NCBI RefSeq assembly: GCF_016026235.1 | Contig: NZ_CP065613.1 | Direction: 5' to 3' (one strand) | DNA length: 64,000 bases | Source: Escherichia coli | Lineage (GTDB): Bacteria > Pseudomonadota > Gammaproteobacteria > Enterobacterales > Enterobacteriaceae | Shown: positions 33,680-52,633 of the stretch, in pieces | Layout: each line of letters opens with the position of its first letter | Position numbering within the stretch: the stretch's first letter is position 1 | Translations under genes and position numbers: made by a program | Notes under the pieces: model-generated | Told to the model about the DNA's origin: nothing | The model's database searches: none | The model's input: the letters and a program-made list of their open reading frames with translations, nothing else

Positions 33680-34054
33680 GGAGTTTACTCACATCTGACA
33701 AAATCAATATAAACAGCCCCTCCGGAGAGGGGCTGGAGAGTGGCGCTATGTGCCATTGCATGGTGCCGGGTGCCTCCCGGTGAATTCAGTACCAGCACCT
33801 GAATCCGCGATTATCCCATATACCTACTCGCTGATTGCCCCTCCGCACAGGGGGATTCACCATGCCAGTTTCTTTTAACAAACTCCCCGCAAACCAGACA
33901 ACAGTCAACCGCCTGAATTGTGAAGTATTTAAAAATTTCTCCCGCTAACTGATACCCGGCTAACAGTCTGGCGTTTTCTTTTTCAGCAACGGGAAAGCAA
34001 CAACCCTGTTATCGTGTCGTCTGCTCTTCCTGATAAGCTAATGGCGGTTTGTGA

Positions 34055-34130
34055 TGGTGGCCCTTGCTGGATTTGAACCAGCGACCTGGCGATTATGAGT
34101 CGCTCGCTCTCACCACTGAGCTAAAGGGCC
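34055..34130 (-). tRNA. tRNA with CAU anticodon (Ile2-type or Met)
   Basis: 76-nt cloverleaf: acceptor GGCCCTT/AAGGGCC, T-loop TTCAAAT, encoded CCA; close to recalled E. coli ileX. Confidence 0.85.
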
Positions 34131-36753: not shown

Positions 36754-36817
36754 TGAGGTAGCCTGAGTTTAACGGACACTCCTTCCTGAAATAGAATGGC
36801 ATCAGAAGGAGCTAATA

Positions 36818-37120
36818 ATGAGCAGAAAAAACCAACGTTACTCTAAAGAGTTCAAAGCCGAAGCTGTCAGAACGGTTCTTGAAAATCAACTTTCGATCAG
36901 TGAAGGCGCTTCCCGATTATCCCTTCCTGAAGGCACTTTAGGACAATGGGTTACCGCCGCCAGAAAAGGGCTCGGTACTCCTGGTTCCCGCACGGTGGCT
37001 GAACTGGAATCTGAAATTCTGCAACTGCGTAAGGCGTTAAATGAAGCTCGCCTTGAGCGAGATATATTAAAAAAAGCAACAGCGTATTTTGCACAGGAGT
37101 CGCTGAAAAATACGCGTTAA
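36818..37120 (+). CDS. IS600 OrfA
   Basis: 100 aa HTH protein MSRKNQRYSKEFKAEAV. Confidence 0.9.
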   Translation: MSRKNQRYSKEFKAEAVRTVLENQLSISEGASRLSLPEGTLGQWVTAARKGLGTPGSRTVAELESEILQLRKALNEARLERDILKKATAYFAQESLKNTR

Positions 37121-37155
37121 TCGAACAATGGCGACAACAATTTCCCATTGAAGCG

Positions 37156-37974
37156 ATGTGTCAGGTATTTGGTGTATCCAGGAGCGGTTATTACAACTGG
37201 GTACAGCATGAACCCTCAGACAGAAAACAAAGTGATGAGCGGCTAAAACTGGAGATTAAGGTGGCACATATCCGCACTCGCGAAACATATGGAACCCGGC
37301 GGCTCCAGACGGAGCTGGCAGAGAATGGCATCATCGTTGGTCGTGACCGACTGGCACGTCTTCGTAAGGAGCTAAGGCTACGCTGTAAGCAGAAACGCAA
37401 GTTCAGAGCGACTACGAACCCGAACCACAATCTGCCAGTTGCGCCAAATCTGCTGAACCAGACGTTCGCTCCTACAGCACCAAATCAGGTCTGGGTGGCG
37501 GACCTGACGTATGTTGCCACACAGGAGGGATGGTTGTACCTCGCTGGCATCAAAGATGTTTATACGTGCGAAATTGTCGGCTACGCCATGGGAGAGCGCA
37601 TGACAAAAGAGCTGACAGGTAAAGCCCTGTTTATGGCGCTCAGGAGCCAGCGCCCACCTGCCGGGCTAATCCACCACTCTGATCGAGGTTCACAGTACTG
37701 CGCATACGATTACCGGGTCATACAGGAGCAGTCTGGTCTGAAAACATCAATGTCGCGTAAAGGTAACTGTTACGACAACGCTCCGATGGAAAGCTTCTGG
37801 GGAACGCTGAAAAATGAGAGCCTGAGCCACTATCGTTTTAATAACCGGGATGAAGCCATCTCAGTAATACGGGAATACATTGAGATTTTCTACAATCGTC
37901 AGCGTCGTCACTCTCGTCTGGGGAATATCTCCCCGGCAGCCTTCAGGGAAAAATATCATCAGATGGCTGCTTAA
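37156..37974 (+). CDS. IS600 OrfB (DDE transposase; made as OrfAB by -1 frameshift)
   Basis: 272-aa ORF; A-run AAAAAAAG near orfA 3' end. Confidence 0.9.
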   Translation: MCQVFGVSRSGYYNWVQHEPSDRKQSDERLKLEIKVAHIRTRETYGTRRLQTELAENGIIVGRDRLARLRKELRLRCKQKRKFRATTNPNHNLPVAPNLLNQTFAPTAPNQVWVADLTYVATQEGWLYLAGIKDVYTCEIVGYAMGERMTKELTGKALFMALRSQRPPAGLIHHSDRGSQYCAYDYRVIQEQSGLKTSMSRKGNCYDNAPMESFWGTLKNESLSHYRFNNRDEAISVIREYIEIFYNRQRRHSRLGNISPAAFREKYHQMAA

Positions 37975-38017
37975 AAAAAGAACAAATGGTAGTGTCCGCT
38001 ATTGCCAGTACACCTCA

Positions 38018-40952: not shown

Positions 40953-41264
40953 GATGGCAGCCTCTTTGGTGATTTTTAATAACTCACCACCAAAGCTTCT
41001 CACGGCAATAGGTGGTGAGACGTACAGGGGTGAGAAACCGGTCACCAAAGAACCCGGCCCAACCGAAGTTGGCCCTGCACGCCCCACCATAATTTGGGCG
41101 TAATGCTGCTCATGACACAAAAAAACCGCAAGAGCGCGGTTGTGCGCTTTGGTGAATTCCGGGTTCTCACGCCCGGCACCCGCTTTATAAGGTGCGGAGA
41201 CAGTGTAACGTCCCGAAATTGCAGAATCAATATCAAAATGTTGTAGCTGTGGACAACGCGAAGC

Positions 41265-46833: not shown

Positions 46834-47022
46834 ATGAACATTTATTTCAGAATAGTTATATCACTGGCAATTATCGCATGTATTTACGGATTAATCGTTC
46901 CGGCCCTCATATCAATGAAGGATACGGTAGCAGTGATTTCTGGCTTTGCTCTGGCGTGTCTGACCCCGCCCTGCATTTATGCCATTTATAAGGGTCTTTC
47001 TTTCCCCAGGAGGGAAAAATGA
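46834..47022 (+). CDS. small membrane protein (two predicted TM segments)
   Basis: 62 aa; CAGGAGG RBS; stop overlaps SPFH ATG. Confidence 0.55.
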   Translation: MNIYFRIVISLAIIACIYGLIVPALISMKDTVAVISGFALACLTPPCIYAIYKGLSFPRREK

Positions 47023-47828
47023 AAAAAACAATTGCGCTTGTTTTCGCGGTCAGTCTGGCTGTCTTCGGACTTGTAGGTTGCGATCGCGTTGAACCAGGTA
47101 ATGTGGGTATCAAAGTCAACAAACTGGGCGACGACAAAGGTGTCGGTGAAGTGGTCGGTGTTGGTCGCTACTGGACTGGCTGGAATACTGAAGTTTACAT
47201 TTTCCCGACCTTCAAGCAAATGAAGACCTACGATGAACCGTTCAGTTTCCAGATGAGTGACGGCACAACCATCGGCTATCACATCGGCGTGGCCTACAAA
47301 GTTGATCCATCCAAAGTTACCACGGTGTTTCAGACTTACCGCAAAGGCGTGGATGACATTACCAACACCGACCTGCGCCAGAAGATCGCCGACGCACTCA
47401 ATCGGCTGGCCAGCAAAATGACCACCGACAAATTTATTGACGGCGGCAAGTCTGAACTACTGGATGCCGCACTTAAAGACATTCAGGAAGAGATGACACC
47501 CATCGGCATTCAGGTAATGAGCCTCTCTTATGTAGGTAAACCGGAATACCCTCCAACCGTTATCGACAGCATTAACGCCAAAGTCACGGCAAACCAGAAA
47601 ACCCTGCAGCGCGAACAGGAAGTCAAGCAACGTGAAGCGGAGGCCAACATGCTACGTGCGGAAGCTGCCGGACAGGCTGATGCCATTCGAACAAAAGCCC
47701 AGGCAGAAGCCGATGCCATTCGTTTACGCGGCGAAGCTCTACGCCAGAACCCAGGCGTCATGGAGCTGGAAGCCATCAACAAGTGGAACGGTACACTGCC
47801 GCAATACATGACCAGTGGTGTGAGGTAG
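47019..47828 (+). CDS. SPFH/band-7 family lipoprotein, last codons replaced by IS600
   Basis: Lipobox LVGC; SPFH core; Ala/Glu/Arg-rich coiled coil; final residues VR encoded by IS600 left end. Confidence 0.8.
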   Translation: MKKTIALVFAVSLAVFGLVGCDRVEPGNVGIKVNKLGDDKGVGEVVGVGRYWTGWNTEVYIFPTFKQMKTYDEPFSFQMSDGTTIGYHIGVAYKVDPSKVTTVFQTYRKGVDDITNTDLRQKIADALNRLASKMTTDKFIDGGKSELLDAALKDIQEEMTPIGIQVMSLSYVGKPEYPPTVIDSINAKVTANQKTLQREQEVKQREAEANMLRAEAAGQADAIRTKAQAEADAIRLRGEALRQNPGVMELEAINKWNGTLPQYMTSGVR

Positions 47829-47884
47829 CCTGAGTTTAACGGACACTCCTTCCTGAAATAGAATGGCATCAGAAGGAGCTAATA

Positions 47885-48187
47885 ATGAGCAGAAAAACCC
47901 AACGTTACTCTAAAGAGTTCAAAGCCGAAGCTGTCAGAACGGTTCTTGAAAATCAACTTTCGATCAGTGAAGGCGCTTCCCGATTATCTCTTCCTGAAGG
48001 CACTTTAGGACAATGGGTTACCGCCGCCAGAAAAGGGCTCGGTACTCCTGGTTCCCGCACGGTGGCTGAACTGGAATCTGAAATTCTGCAACTGCGTAAG
48101 GCGTTAAATGAAGCTCGCCTTGAGCGAGATATATTAAAAAAAGCAACAGCGTATTTTGCACAGGAGTCGCTGAAAAATACGCGTTAA
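47885..48187 (+). CDS. IS600 OrfA
   Basis: Near-identical to copy 1. Confidence 0.9.
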   Translation: MSRKTQRYSKEFKAEAVRTVLENQLSISEGASRLSLPEGTLGQWVTAARKGLGTPGSRTVAELESEILQLRKALNEARLERDILKKATAYFAQESLKNTR

Positions 48188-48222
48188 TCGAACAATGGCG
48201 ACAACAATTTCCCATTGAAGCG

Positions 48223-49041
48223 ATGTGTCAGGTATTTGGTGTATCCAGGAGCGGTTATTACAACTGGGTACAGCATGAACCCTCAGACAGAAAACAAAGT
48301 GATGAGCGGCTAAAACTGGAGATTAAGGTGGCACATATCCGCACTCGCGAAACATATGGAACCCGGCGGCTCCAGACGGAGCTGGCAGAGAATGGCATCA
48401 TCGTTGGTCGTGACCGACTGGCACGTCTTCGTAAGGAGCTAAGGCTACGCTGTAAGCAGAAACGCAAGTTCAGAGCGACTACGAACCCGAACCACAATCT
48501 GCCAGTTGCGCCAAATCTGCTGAACCAGACGTTCGCTCCTACAGCACCAAATCAGGTCTGGGTGGCGGACCTGACGTATGTTGCCACACAGGAGGGATGG
48601 TTGTACCTCGCTGGCATCAAAGATGTTTATACGTGCGAAATTGTCGGCTACGCCATGGGAGAGCGCATGACAAAAGAGCTGACAGGTAAAGCCCTGTTTA
48701 TGGCGCTCAGGAGCCAGCGCCCACCTGCCGGGCTAATCCACCACTCTGATCGAGGTTCACAGTACTGCGCATACGATTACCGGGTCATACAGGAGCAGTC
48801 TGGTCTGAAAACATCAATGTCGCGTAAAGGTAACTGTTACGACAACGCTCCGATGGAAAGCTTCTGGGGAACGCTGAAAAATGAGAGCCTGAGCCACTAT
48901 CGTTTTAATAACCGGGATGAAGCCATCTCAGTAATACGGGAATACATTGAGATTTTCTACAATCGTCAGCGTCGTCACTCTCGTCTGGGGAATATCTCCC
49001 CGGCAGCCTTCAGGGAAAAATATCATCAGATGGCTGCTTAA
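48223..49041 (+). CDS. IS600 OrfB
   Basis: Identical to copy 1. Confidence 0.9.
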   Translation: MCQVFGVSRSGYYNWVQHEPSDRKQSDERLKLEIKVAHIRTRETYGTRRLQTELAENGIIVGRDRLARLRKELRLRCKQKRKFRATTNPNHNLPVAPNLLNQTFAPTAPNQVWVADLTYVATQEGWLYLAGIKDVYTCEIVGYAMGERMTKELTGKALFMALRSQRPPAGLIHHSDRGSQYCAYDYRVIQEQSGLKTSMSRKGNCYDNAPMESFWGTLKNESLSHYRFNNRDEAISVIREYIEIFYNRQRRHSRLGNISPAAFREKYHQMAA

Positions 49042-49150
49042 AAAAAGAACAAATGGTAGTGTCCGCTATTGCCAGTACACCTCAGTGCCAATACACCATT
49101 TATCCAGATTAAATAACTTATATGCCCGGCAGGCCGCCGGGCTAAGGGAA

Positions 49151-49528
49151 ATGCAGATGAACACCCAGAATACTCAACCGCAAATAATGAACTATGACCC
49201 GAATCTGACGTCATGCGGACGCATGGCAAAACAAACCGTTCGATTAACTTTCGGACTATGGGAATACCGCGAAACATTCGAAGTTACTGTCGGCGGCAAT
49301 CTGACCGGACTGGATGTTATCAGTTGCGCTATTGAAAGCCTGTACGCAACGCTGCCTTATGAAGAAGTCGAGGATGAGCGAACAGGGGAAACAGATATCA
49401 TGGCCACCATTAATATTGGCGAACTGATATGTCAGGATGAAGACCTGTCCGGAGAGCTCTGGCTTGCCGGGATGCTTATCTCAGCAGAAATTATCAGTAT
49501 TGAACCCGCTACAAACATACGGCTCTGA
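49151..49528 (+). CDS. hypothetical acidic protein
   Basis: 125 aa; AAGGGAA RBS; hairpin GCCCGGC/GCCGGGC just upstream. Confidence 0.5.
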   Translation: MQMNTQNTQPQIMNYDPNLTSCGRMAKQTVRLTFGLWEYRETFEVTVGGNLTGLDVISCAIESLYATLPYEEVEDERTGETDIMATINIGELICQDEDLSGELWLAGMLISAEIISIEPATNIRL

Positions 49529-49559
49529 AGTTCTCACTATTCAGAGAGCAGGAGAAAAA

Positions 49560-49802
49560 ATGTTCGCTTTGATTAATCAGGGACAACTGTATACCGACAG
49601 TGCCGGTTACCCGGTAAAAATTATTCGCTGCATAAACAACACTGTGTTGTACAGAAGAATGGATGGGCGAACACAGTCAGTAAAAATAAACGATTTCAAT
49701 GAACTGTTTGAACGGATCGATCACCAGGAATACCGACAAATTCTGGCAGAAACAGAGCAGGAAGCTCATCTGAAAAAATTACGGGCCATGAAAAGGAAGT
49801 AA
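49560..49802 (+). CDS. hypothetical protein
   Basis: 80 aa; CAGGAGA RBS. Confidence 0.5.
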   Translation: MFALINQGQLYTDSAGYPVKIIRCINNTVLYRRMDGRTQSVKINDFNELFERIDHQEYRQILAETEQEAHLKKLRAMKRK

Positions 49803-49805
49803 AGA

Positions 49806-49952
49806 ATGAATAAAGCGTTTGAGCTATGGGTACGCCAGCGTTACGGCAATCGCTATGACCTGACGCGAGATGTTGACGGTTTCTACTGTCGTGAAATTGT
49901 GAAACGAATGTTTGAAGTGTGGTGCCACTGCCGTGGGCTGAGTGTTGTGTGA
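49806..49952 (+). CDS. hypothetical small protein
   Basis: 48 aa directly after previous gene. Confidence 0.4.
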   Translation: MNKAFELWVRQRYGNRYDLTRDVDGFYCREIVKRMFEVWCHCRGLSVV

Positions 49953-49960
49953 GGTAATGC

Positions 49961-50197
49961 ATGGGCAATGTGATTCAACTGGCTCCCAATGAATGGGTTT
50001 GTGAAAGCGTTCTTATCGCAATTACCGGGCTCAAACCAGGCACAATTCTCCGAGCCCGGAAAGAATGCTGGATGGTAGGAAGAGAGTATATTCACGTATC
50101 ACCAGACGGTAATCCAAAGCCATCCAGCGAATGTATGTATAACAGAAAAGCAATAGATGCCTGGGTCTCTTCAATGAAAAACAAACAACCTGGGTGA
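49961..50197 (+). CDS. excisionase-like protein
   Basis: 78 aa directly upstream of integrase. Confidence 0.6.
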   Translation: MGNVIQLAPNEWVCESVLIAITGLKPGTILRARKECWMVGREYIHVSPDGNPKPSSECMYNRKAIDAWVSSMKNKQPG

Positions 50198-50252
50198 TTT
50201 AATGCCATGAAGTATGTAAGCTCGTATCGCTCTTGGGCGTCTGGAGGTATCA

Positions 50253-51425
50253 ATGGATAAAGTCAAATATCCAACAGGCGTCGAAAACCACGGTGGCACA
50301 TTACGCATCTGGTTTAATTTTAAAGGTAAACGTGTCAGGGAAAATCTTGGTGTCCCTGACACTGCCAAGAACAGGAAGATCGCCGGAGAGCTGCGGACAT
50401 CTGTATGTTTTGCCATTCGTACAGGAAATTTTGATTATGCTGCGCAGTTCCCTGACTCTCCTAACCTCAAGGCTTTTGGGGTAAATAAAAAAGAAATTAC
50501 GGTGAAAGAACTTGAAGAAAAATGGCTGGATCTGAAACGAATGGAAATCTCTGCAAATGCATTCAATCGCTATGAATCCATTGCAAGGATGATGGTTCCG
50601 AAGATTGGTGGCAACCGACTGGTATCAGCAGTGACCAAAGAGGAATTGCTGTATATCAGGAAAGATTTGCTGACCGGATACCAAAATCCAACAAAAGGTA
50701 AAGCTCCAGTAAAAGGACGAAGCGTTGTCACAGTAAATTATTACATGACAACAATCGCTGGAATGTTTCAGTTTGCTGCAGATCACGGTTACATAGAAGC
50801 AAATCCCTTCGAGGGAATTAAGCCTCTTAAAAGAGCCAGGGCAGAACCAGATCCGCTAACTCGTGACGAATTTATTCGCCTGATAGATGCTTGCCGGCAT
50901 CAGCAGACAAAAAACCTGTGGTCATTGGCTGTGTACACAGGAATGCGTCATGGTGAACTGGTCTCCCTGGCCTGGGAAGATATCGATCTGAAAGCAGGAA
51001 CAATTACTATCAGGCGCAATTATACGAAACTCGGTGAGTTCACTCTACCTAAAACTGAAGCAAGTACAAACAGGGTTGTGCATCTTATCCAGCCCGCTAT
51101 CAGTGTCCTGAAAAATCAGGCTGAAATGACAAGACTGGGTAAGCAGCACAACATCAAGGTTCAACTACGTGAATATGGACGTTCAGTAAATCATGAATGT
51201 ACTTTCGTATTTAACCCCCAGGTGGTTAGAAAAAGCAAACAGGTAGGTTTTATCTACAAGGTAGATTCCATTGGCGACTCATGGGAAACAGCCATTAAAC
51301 GTGCAGGCATCAGGCATCGAAAGGCATACCAGTCACGACACACTTATGCGTGCTGGTCATTATCTGCCGGAGCAAATCCAAGCTTCATTGCCAGCCAGAT
51401 GGGGCATGCAAGTGAGGTAGCCTGA
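50253..51425 (+). pseudogene. int: tyrosine integrase, 3' end interrupted by IS600
   Basis: GGAGG RBS; catalytic region through HTYACWSLSAGANPSFIASQMGH then IS600 from 51413. Confidence 0.85.
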
Positions 51426-51476
51426 GTTTAACGGACACTCCTTCCTGAAATAGAATGGCATCAGAAGGAGCTAATA

Positions 51477-51779
51477 ATGAGCAGAAAAACCCAACGTTAC
51501 TCTAAAGAGTTCAAAGCCGAAGCTGTCAGAACGGTTCTTGAAAATCAACTTTCGATCAGTGAAGGCGCTTCCCGATTATCCCTTCCTGAAGGCACTTTAG
51601 GACAATGGGTTACCGCCGCCAGAAAAGGGCTCGGTACTCCTGGCTCCCGCACGGTGGCTGAACTGGAATCTGAAATTCTGCAACTGCGTAAGGCGTTAAA
51701 TGAAGCTCGCCTTGAGCGAGATATATTAAAAAAAGCAACAGCGTATTTTGCACAGGAGTCGCTGAAAAATACGCGTTAA
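51477..51779 (+). CDS. IS600 OrfA
   Basis: As copy 2. Confidence 0.9.
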   Translation: MSRKTQRYSKEFKAEAVRTVLENQLSISEGASRLSLPEGTLGQWVTAARKGLGTPGSRTVAELESEILQLRKALNEARLERDILKKATAYFAQESLKNTR

Positions 51780-51814
51780 TCGAACAATGGCGACAACAAT
51801 TTCCCATTGAAGCG

Positions 51815-52633
51815 ATGTGTCAGGTATTTGGTGTATCCAGGAGCGGTTATTACAACTGGGTACAGCATGAACCCTCAGACAGAAAACAAAGTGATGAGCG
51901 GCTAAAACTGGAGATTAAGGTGGCACATATCCGCACTCGCGAAACATATGGAACCCGGCGGCTCCAGACGGAGCTGGCAGAGAATGGCATCATCGTTGGT
52001 CGTGACCGACTGGCACGTCTTCGTAAGGAGCTAAGGCTACGCTGTAAGCAGAAACGCAAGTTCAGAGCGACTACGAACCCGAACCACAATCTGCCAGTTG
52101 CGCCAAATCTGCTGAACCAGACGTTCGCTCCTACAGCACCAAATCAGGTCTGGGTGGCGGACCTGACGTATGTTGCCACACAGGAGGGATGGTTGTACCT
52201 CGCTGGCATCAAAGATGTTTATACGTGCGAAATTGTCGGCTACGCCATGGGAGAGCGCATGACAAAAGAGCTGACAGGTAAAGCCCTGTTTATGGCGCTC
52301 AGGAGCCAGCGCCCACCTGCCGGGCTAATCCACCACTCTGATCGAGGTTCACAGTACTGCGCATACGATTACCGGGTCATACAGGAGCAGTTTGGTCTGA
52401 AAACATCAATGTCGCGTAAAGGTAACTGTTACGACAACGCTCCGATGGAAAGCTTCTGGGGAACGCTGAAAAATGAGAGCCTGAGCCACTATCGTTTTAA
52501 TAACCGGGATGAAGCCATCTCAGTAATACGGGAATACATTGAGATTTTCTACAATCGTCAGCGTCGTCACTCTCGTCTGGGGAATATCTCCCCGGCAGCC
52601 TTCAGGGAAAAATATCATCAGATGGCTGCTTAA
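51815..52633 (+). CDS. IS600 OrfB
   Basis: One substitution (F for S) versus other copies. Confidence 0.9.
   Translation: MCQVFGVSRSGYYNWVQHEPSDRKQSDERLKLEIKVAHIRTRETYGTRRLQTELAENGIIVGRDRLARLRKELRLRCKQKRKFRATTNPNHNLPVAPNLLNQTFAPTAPNQVWVADLTYVATQEGWLYLAGIKDVYTCEIVGYAMGERMTKELTGKALFMALRSQRPPAGLIHHSDRGSQYCAYDYRVIQEQFGLKTSMSRKGNCYDNAPMESFWGTLKNESLSHYRFNNRDEAISVIREYIEIFYNRQRRHSRLGNISPAAFREKYHQMAA

Follow-up and report, generated by a model that had tools for sequence, protein, structure and literature searches.

Conserved accessory genes between an IS600-interrupted SPFH gene and xis/int in a phiP27-like prophage of Escherichia coli

Results

Three small genes at the distal end of a proposed early-left operon

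We examined a 64,000-nucleotide (nt) stretch of Escherichia coli DNA (contig NZ_CP065613.1, hereafter the window), in which three small open reading frames (ORF1, ORF2 and ORF3) are located between an SPFH/Band-7 lipoprotein gene clipped by the insertion sequence (IS) IS600 and the xis and int genes of a prophage. The explanation we consider likely is that the three are conserved, independently mobile and non-essential accessory genes in the distal part of the early-left operon of a phiP27-like yecE prophage that is now immobilised. All three were found to be already catalogued and widespread, and are ordinary prophage accessory genes. The features of this segment, in window coordinates, are as follows.

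47821-49084, + strand: IS600 copy 2, 1264 bp, within the 3' end of the SPFH gene, its transposase genes co-directional with the ORFs
49085-49116, + strand: displaced 3' remnant of the SPFH/Band-7 lipoprotein gene (PF01145), comprising one copy of the target duplication, the last 9 codons and the TAA stop
49124-49142, + strand: G+C hairpin GCCCGGC-aggcc-GCCGGGC, perfect 7-bp stem, 8 nt past the SPFH stop
49144-49149, + strand: Shine-Dalgarno (SD)-like sequence AAGGGA of ORF1, 7 nt before the conserved ORF1 start
49157-49528, + strand: ORF1, DUF5406 family protein, 123 amino acids (aa), or 125 aa when read from 49151
49560-49802, + strand: ORF2, DUF4222 protein, 80 aa, isoelectric point (pI) 9.5, of the same Pfam family as RgdR
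49806-49952, + strand: ORF3, phrog_3871 'Bacteriophage protein', 48 aa, basic, pI 9.0
49961-50197, + strand: xis, DUF1233-type excisionase, 78 aa
50253-51412, + strand: 5' part of the tyrosine integrase gene int, split by IS600 copy 3, with the 3' remainder at 52680-52833

An earlier note, made from the sequence of this DNA, had described three small unassigned ORFs, each with a ribosome-binding site. Their existence was confirmed at 49151-49528 (125 aa), 49560-49802 (80 aa) and 49806-49952 (48 aa), with SD-like sequences AAGGGA, AGGAG and AAGGAAG before ORF1, ORF2 and ORF3, respectively, and so was their position between the clipped SPFH gene and xis/int, all of which are co-directional. The homology search that the note had proposed as a check showed the ORFs to be conserved. 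Substitutions among relatives favoured the third codon position; for example, ORF2 differed from its ASU11 counterpart by 5, 3 and 16 changes at codon positions 1, 2 and 3. Because homologues were detected in other genera (to 45% identity) and substitutions show this third-position bias, the three ORFs are far beyond what chance would yield. The description of the genes as unassigned did not hold, as ORF1, ORF2 and ORF3 matched DUF5406, DUF4222 and phrog_3871, respectively, and RefSeq annotates all three in identical prophages. Only by the old annotation of phage phiP27, in which longer overlapping ORFs were called and the 48-aa gene was missed, would they count as unassigned. The exact ORF1, ORF2 and ORF3 proteins were present on 329, 109 and at least 1000 public contigs, respectively. 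Searches of the PDB by sequence and profile with ORF1-3 returned nothing real.

Closest relatives and modular gene content

Block 49085-50260 was found to be 97.4% identical in nucleotide sequence to Stx2e phage phiP27 (NC_003356) and up to 98% identical to yecE-integrated prophages in 96 complete E. coli genomes. The order of genes in phiP27 and the yecE prophages (SPFH, DUF5406, DUF4222, 48-aa gene, DUF1233 xis, int and yecE) is the same as that observed here. For the yecE prophages, the RefSeq labels read 'DUF5406 family protein' (123 aa), 'DUF4222 domain-containing protein' (80 aa) and 'hypothetical protein' (48 aa), followed by excisionase, integrase and a DUF72 gene. The locus differs from phiP27 in that IS600 parts the SPFH gene from the block and another IS600 splits int; the phiP27 annotation differs in turn by having L04 (444 nt) and L03 (366 nt) as the longer overlapping ORFs and no call for the 48-aa gene.

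Gene content was further compared among 80 IMG/VR loci that were found with ORF3, at 83-100% ORF3 identity and nearly all at 94% or above. A DUF4222 gene was directly upstream of ORF3 in 79 of the 80 loci, an SPFH gene was present in 58, and DUF5406 was present in 53 and absent from the other 27, counts that are not independent because the loci are close relatives. In a related prophage (L010), the DUF4222 gene was positioned directly before xis/int and downstream of recE-gam-recT-yqaJ, with no ORF3, and a DUF4222 gene was also found directly before xis/int in JLK-2012 and PhiR12_1. In many Stx2a phages whose genomes were deposited as complete, a deletion has brought nt 1-99 of ORF2 next to nt 93-131 of ORF3, and ORF2 and ORF3 are thus probably dispensable. 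In Stx2_14040 (2976-3092 of its locus) and about 90 similar Stx2a phage records, the deletion leaves a 38-aa hybrid ORF that is annotated as hypothetical. We also considered whether ORF2 and ORF3 form an obligate pair, as they are adjacent in 79 of the 80 close loci; this was rejected, since distant relatives of ORF3 have no DUF4222 neighbour and L010 lacks ORF3. Judged from these gene contexts, the three genes are separable mosaic modules.

Proposed operon organisation and the lambda counterpart

The genes are closely spaced, with gaps of 31 nt between ORF1 and ORF2, 3 nt between ORF2 and ORF3, 8 nt between ORF3 and xis and 55 nt between xis and int, and each gene has an SD sequence. They are at the distal end of a series of co-directional genes, which starts with a cI-like XRE repressor gene, continues with several small genes and the SPFH gene and, past the three ORFs, leads to xis and int. 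From 47700 to 50400 the + strand had no predicted intrinsic terminator. Based on the shared direction and the spacings of 3-55 nt, the three genes would be co-transcribed with xis and int in an intact phage upon infection or induction.

The earlier note had placed the three ORFs in the slot of the lambda recombination and kil genes, an assignment that was not supported. ORF1-3 had no match to the Exo/YqaJ, Bet/RecT, Gam or Kil/KilR families of Pfam and NCBIfam (at E ≤ 0.1) or in PADLOC. The genes for RecE, Gam, RecT and YqaJ are located upstream of the DUF4222 gene in L010, and in a further locus (L012) the recombination/kil families are likewise separate upstream genes. The exo-xis region of lambda and Stx phages (orf60a, orf61, orf63, orf73, ea22 and ea8.5) occupies the same place as the three ORFs, distally in the early-left operon and just before xis. 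The small genes of this region are short, conserved and non-essential in the laboratory, and affect lysogenisation and induction (PMC3824215, PMC6213356). The lambda exo-xis genes showed no sequence relationship to ORF1-3 in Pfam and PHROG scans, and the phage examined here differs from lambda in having no exo/bet/gam module adjoining the block. By position and by analogy, the right lambda counterpart of the three genes is the non-essential exo-xis region.

ORF1 is a DUF5406 protein with a start at 49157

Two ATG codons are available for the start of ORF1. The ATG at 49151 is only 1 nt from the SD sequence and is replaced by AAG or AAT in phiP27 and Stx2_14040, whereas the ATG at 49157 is conserved, is 7 nt from the SD sequence and is the start used by RefSeq. 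Because of this conservation and better spacing, ORF1 is best read as 49157-49528 (123 aa).

ORF1 was assigned to DUF5406 (PF17400) by a match of 79.1 bits (E = 3.9e-22) that covers profile positions 1-116 of 116, compared to a gathering threshold of 25 bits; it also matched phrog_3409 (E = 1e-52). All of the residues that are invariant in the family (D14, G21, W35, G47, N48 and G51) are present. The protein is strongly acidic (pI of 4.05, net charge of about -14, 20 acidic compared to 6 basic residues), and its structure model has an alpha+beta fold in which the N-terminal segment is conserved and of low confidence. No solved analogue of this model was found. The most conserved stretch of the family, NYDPNLT.(S/C)GRMAKQ, corresponds to ORF1 residues 12-26, where the predicted local distance difference test (pLDDT) score is about 50, a pattern that in a model of this kind would be typical of a peptide that folds upon a partner.

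DUF5406 homologues, to 45% identity, were detected in Serratia, Citrobacter, Pseudomonas and Stutzerimonas. In a Mu-like prophage of Pseudomonas the gene is in the early region, flanked by a MuB-like ATPase gene and DUF3164/GemA/Mor; others occur in the early-left string of a Serratia prophage, in an element that also has genes for SSB and CsrA, and in Halomonas phage phiHAP-1. Longer DUF5406 proteins of 160-220 aa were considered as a Rosetta-stone clue and set aside, as their N-terminal extensions are unrelated. A literature search on DUF5406 found no paper. ORF1 would most likely bind and inhibit a conserved cellular protein in early phage development.

ORF3 is a widespread 48-aa phage protein

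ORF3 was assigned full-length to phrog_3871 (123.6 bits, E = 5.7e-36, profile positions 1-48 of 48) and had no match to a Pfam family. Its 95 homologues are distributed across Enterobacterales, with F5, E6, Y17, D18, L19, D22, G25, Y27, R29 and E30 invariant; those at 70-96% identity are from Salmonella, Enterobacter, Klebsiella, Cronobacter, Pantoea and Hafnia. Genes for distant relatives were found in other settings: before exc/int and after a LexA-like gene in Pantoea, in the nin region in Hafnia, with NinB on one side and RusA or NinG on the other, and before a PyocinActivator-family gene in Klebsiella. Matches of the ORF3 profile to TAL effectors in the PDB (E about 1e-7) were dismissed as an artefact of summed repeats, as 0 stretches pass alone.

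Two further observations concern this gene. In phage PhiR12_1 (2749-2922 of its locus), int follows 173 bp after the 48-aa gene with no annotated excisionase between them; either a small xis lacks annotation or a different directionality factor is used. In addition, the 90%-identity cluster of the 48-aa protein also holds 80-aa DUF4222 proteins, one of which is the representative. This mixture is probably a clustering artefact, caused by ORF calls that read through the 3-nt gap or were fused over it.

IS600 copy 2 and the hairpin belong to the SPFH side of the junction

Three IS600 copies are present in the window (36754-38017, 47821-49084 and 51413-52676), with 2-3 base differences between copies, and the designation of the one next to the ORFs as copy 2 in the earlier note was correct, as it is the middle one. 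Copy 2 has inverted repeats (start, TGAGGTAGCC; end, GTACACCTCA) and is flanked by a 3-bp target duplication, GTG, at 47818-47820 and 49085-49087. Since it ends at 49084, the stretch under study starts at the first base past the IS. When the IS and one copy of the duplication were deleted in silico, the rejoined SPFH gene ended in ...TSGANTPFIQIK followed by its stop, identical to the intact gene of E. coli MEI7BO1-21. The clipping of the SPFH gene by IS600 was in this way verified; the gene loses only its last 9 codons and its true stop is at 49114-49116.

The SPFH/Band-7 gene (46834-47828) is annotated by phrog_200 as 'lipoprotein', and a 62-aa hydrophobic ORF upstream overlaps its start; the hydrophobic ORF, the SPFH gene and the 3' hairpin have the appearance of a self-contained moron-type membrane module. 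Other IS600 insertions near or in the same block were observed in IMG/VR relatives as independent events (L023, 1406-2669; L068, 196-1459), of which one is 332 nt upstream of the 48-aa gene and the other is oppositely oriented, in or beside the SPFH gene. That the IS600 sites differ among related genomes is as expected of random IS expansion in Shigella rather than of selection. The three same-orientation copies of the window are within 16 kb of one prophage, and recombination between copies could remove 10-15 kb.

The hairpin reported ahead of the ORFs is present as described, with a perfect 7-bp stem at 49124-49142 that dominates the centroid fold of the region (-16.1 kcal/mol). Perfect 7-bp hairpins made entirely of G+C numbered 4 in the window compared to 0.37 expected from first-order Markov simulations. 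This hairpin was not called by the terminator scan: TAAGGGAAAT follows the stem, with no T run, and for want of a U tract after the stem it is not a canonical intrinsic terminator. An Rfam scan of 47000-51000 gave zero matches.

Of 56 related loci, 55 have a G+C hairpin 3' of the SPFH stop, and in 3 of these the gene downstream is not DUF5406; the hairpin was absent from ASU11 and from two loci that have DUF5406 without SPFH. Its loop varies freely (AGGCC, AGGTC, AGACC, AAACC, AGGGC, AGAAC and TATTACAC), and the only stem variants are C-to-T changes that keep a G.U pair in the + strand RNA. From this distribution, the hairpin is a 3' element of the SPFH module that travels with SPFH rather than with the three ORFs. 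The loop and stem variation is consistent with a role in that module as a 3' element for stabilisation or weak termination. The suggestion that the hairpin leads the three ORFs was not upheld, given that it co-occurs with SPFH and not with DUF5406; a leader or attenuator of ORF1 was rejected on the same ground and because the ORF1 SD sequence is not overlapped.

State of the prophage and host context

IS600 copy 3 (51413-52676), with an AAG target duplication, splits int after ...QMGHAS and before ...NVYGAW. Rejoining of the two parts in silico restored a full 437-aa integrase. The detached C-terminal piece (...NVYGAW) presumably holds the catalytic tyrosine of the recombinase, and with this segment detached by IS600 copy 3, excision of the prophage is very probably impossible. 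The three genes would then be intact passengers in a decaying, immobilised prophage.

The prophage is located between aspS and yecE, and its gene content includes lambda-like tail genes as well as an effector gene, ipaH. Window positions 1-22150 match genomes of E. coli and enteroinvasive E. coli (EIEC), with lambda-like tail genes (tape measure, gpJ and tail fibre), an ipaH-type effector gene (ipaHd) of the type III secretion system (T3SS), along with aspS; these matches point to a Shigella/EIEC-like host with a virulence effector on the prophage. Rfam matches above the gathering score included a C4 antisense RNA (83 bits) and an isrK Hfq-binding RNA (64 bits), adjacent to each other on the - strand at 41008-41094 and 41119-41195, a pair that resembles a P1/P7-type immI-like antisense immunity element. 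Other Rfam matches, at 33705-33894 (- strand), 34058-34130 (- strand), 59811-60118 (- strand) and 55832-55874 (+ strand), were to STnc100 small RNA (sRNA), a tRNA gene, MicL sRNA and ES036/CssrF. MicL sRNA is in the cutC region, downstream of yecE-yecN-cmoAB.

Discussion

Alternative explanations

The place of the genes before xis would also be explained if ORF2 and ORF3, with or without ORF1, were accessory factors of site-specific recombination that help or regulate Xis and Int, a proposal we regard as quite improbable. A DUF4222 gene or ORF3 directly precedes xis or int in phages with differing recombination modules (DUF1233 Xis in the present prophage and phiP27, excisionases of 84 aa in ASU11 and JLK-2012, HTH_17 Xis in L010, and no annotated xis between ORF3 and int in PhiR12_1), the end of ORF3 is within 8 nt of the xis start, and the DUF4222-ORF3 pair is kept beside xis/int in 79 of the 80 IMG/VR loci. 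These loci are, however, closely related, so that their counts are not independent evidence; the Hafnia relatives of ORF3 are in the nin region, distant from int; RgdR-type DUF4222 genes adjoin a primase gene in an island like a phage-inducible chromosomal island (PICI); complete Stx2a phages have the ORF2-ORF3 deletion fusion; and the sole characterised DUF4222 member acts on host transcription (PMC3378721). Somewhat less improbable, although still unlikely, is that ORF1, and perhaps also ORF3, is expressed early as an inhibitor for anti-defence or host takeover, either an acidic nucleic-acid mimic or a small toxic Kil-like protein, and disarms a host system or blocks cell division. The acidic composition of ORF1 and its recurrence in strings of small early genes in temperate elements that are unrelated to each other (lambdoid, Mu-like and phiHAP-1) are consistent with such a role, as are the 48-aa length of ORF3 and its occurrence in non-essential early and nin regions; lambda Kil is of about 48 aa. 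By contrast, no match was found to the Pfam Kil families, PADLOC or annotated anti-defence families, and the ORF1 model had no structural similarity to known DNA mimics. The proposal also overlaps the role suggested for ORF1 in our preferred explanation, from which it differs mainly by naming a class of target.

That IS600 has rewired the block, so that the three genes and xis are constitutively expressed through read-through or a hybrid promoter and give the lysogen a new phenotype, appears highly unlikely to us. The IS600 transposase genes are co-directional with the ORFs, a promoter-like site is present in the left IS end (47836-47864), and from that site to int no + strand terminator-like site was predicted, the hairpin being devoid of a U tract. 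Against this, no promoter-like site was predicted at the right IS end or the junction, and transposase expression of IS3-family elements is normally very low and frameshift-dependent. The 116 untranslated nt past the orfB stop may allow Rho-dependent polarity, and the IS600 insertions of related genomes are at other sites, as expected of random expansion. Some effect of IS600 on the expression of ORF1-3, as the earlier note had raised, is plausible from this arrangement.

Taken together, the data favour conserved, separable accessory genes of the early-left operon. As the genes are catalogued and widespread and the prophage that carries them is dead, the locus itself is of little importance, and the useful outcome is a set of corrections: the start of ORF1, the ownership of the hairpin and the use of exo-xis instead of the recombination/kil analogy. 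One testable lead emerges from ORF2.

ORF2, the DUF4222 family and comparison with RgdR

ORF2 was assigned to DUF4222 (PF13973) by a match of 60.6 bits (E = 1.1e-16; profile positions 2-53 of 53; gathering threshold of 27 bits) and to phrog_285 (E = 9.1e-34), and homologues of its family were detected at about 20-60% identity. Large DUF4222 profile matches over multiple stretches of 300-5900-aa proteins were discarded as spurious, these being DUF346-type repeat proteins. The structure model of ORF2 (pLDDT of 89.1) has a five-stranded Tudor/SH3-like barrel at residues 10-53 that is followed by a long basic C-terminal helix (residues 55-79) ending in the conserved HLKKLRAMKRK. The best fold matches of this model were Tudor domains that bind RNA polymerase (RNAP), namely those of the UvrD/PcrA C-terminus and CarD. 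Based on its family and on the predicted barrel and helix, ORF2 is most likely a small regulator that would bind nucleic acid or RNAP and modulate transcription.

The characterised member of the family is RgdR (ECs1581) of enterohaemorrhagic E. coli O157:H7, which carries a DUF4222 domain according to a review (PMC10877973), an assignment that we confirmed (82 bits to PF13973). RgdR is an activator of LEE1, of the locus of enterocyte effacement, and of type III secretion and a repressor of motility, and its binding to DNA is weak and non-specific (Flockhart et al. 2012, PMC3378721); its RGD tripeptide, residues 20-22, matters for T3SS activation (PMC3378721). Our literature search found no mechanistic work on RgdR after 2012. 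We speculate, with low confidence and from structure models, that DUF4222 proteins including ORF2 and RgdR may be small RNAP-binding factors borne by phages and islands, with the barrel on RNAP beta as for the UvrD C-terminal domain and CarD and the basic helix on DNA. If true, this would explain the pleiotropic, non-sequence-specific effects of RgdR on LEE1, motility and curli, and many lambdoid prophages, including the ipaH-carrying Shigella/EIEC one described here, would encode a general transcription modulator beside xis. The idea could account for both a prophage-encoded virulence regulator and a gene of thousands of E. coli and Shigella prophages.

Several observations weigh against our preferred explanation. 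Pairwise BLASTP of ORF2 and RgdR gave marginal similarity (33% over 27 aa, E = 0.11). At the position of the RGD tripeptide ORF2 has Q7-G8-Q9 (QGQ), which places it outside the RGD subgroup, and it lacks the 16-residue N-terminal extension of RgdR, starting instead at the barrel. PADLOC-DB, in addition, had no match for ORF1-3 at E ≤ 1. RgdR orthologues are of about 99 aa with >77% similarity to ECs1581, compared to the 80 aa of ORF2 and its 18-19% identity in alignments. By these sequence comparisons ORF2 is a DUF4222 member that is a distant relative, but no orthologue, of RgdR.

The two proteins are alike in that both exceed the PF13973 gathering threshold (60.6 bits for ORF2 and 82 bits for RgdR) and both are small basic proteins encoded on a prophage or island, in which a barrel-forming core precedes a basic C-terminal tail. 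They differ in setting, as the RgdR gene adjoins a primase gene in a P4/PICI-like island (Sakai prophage Sp7) and not xis/int. Beyond the family itself, the closest known systems to ORF2 include the Tudor-like RNAP-interacting domains of the UvrD/PcrA C-terminus, CarD and Mfd.

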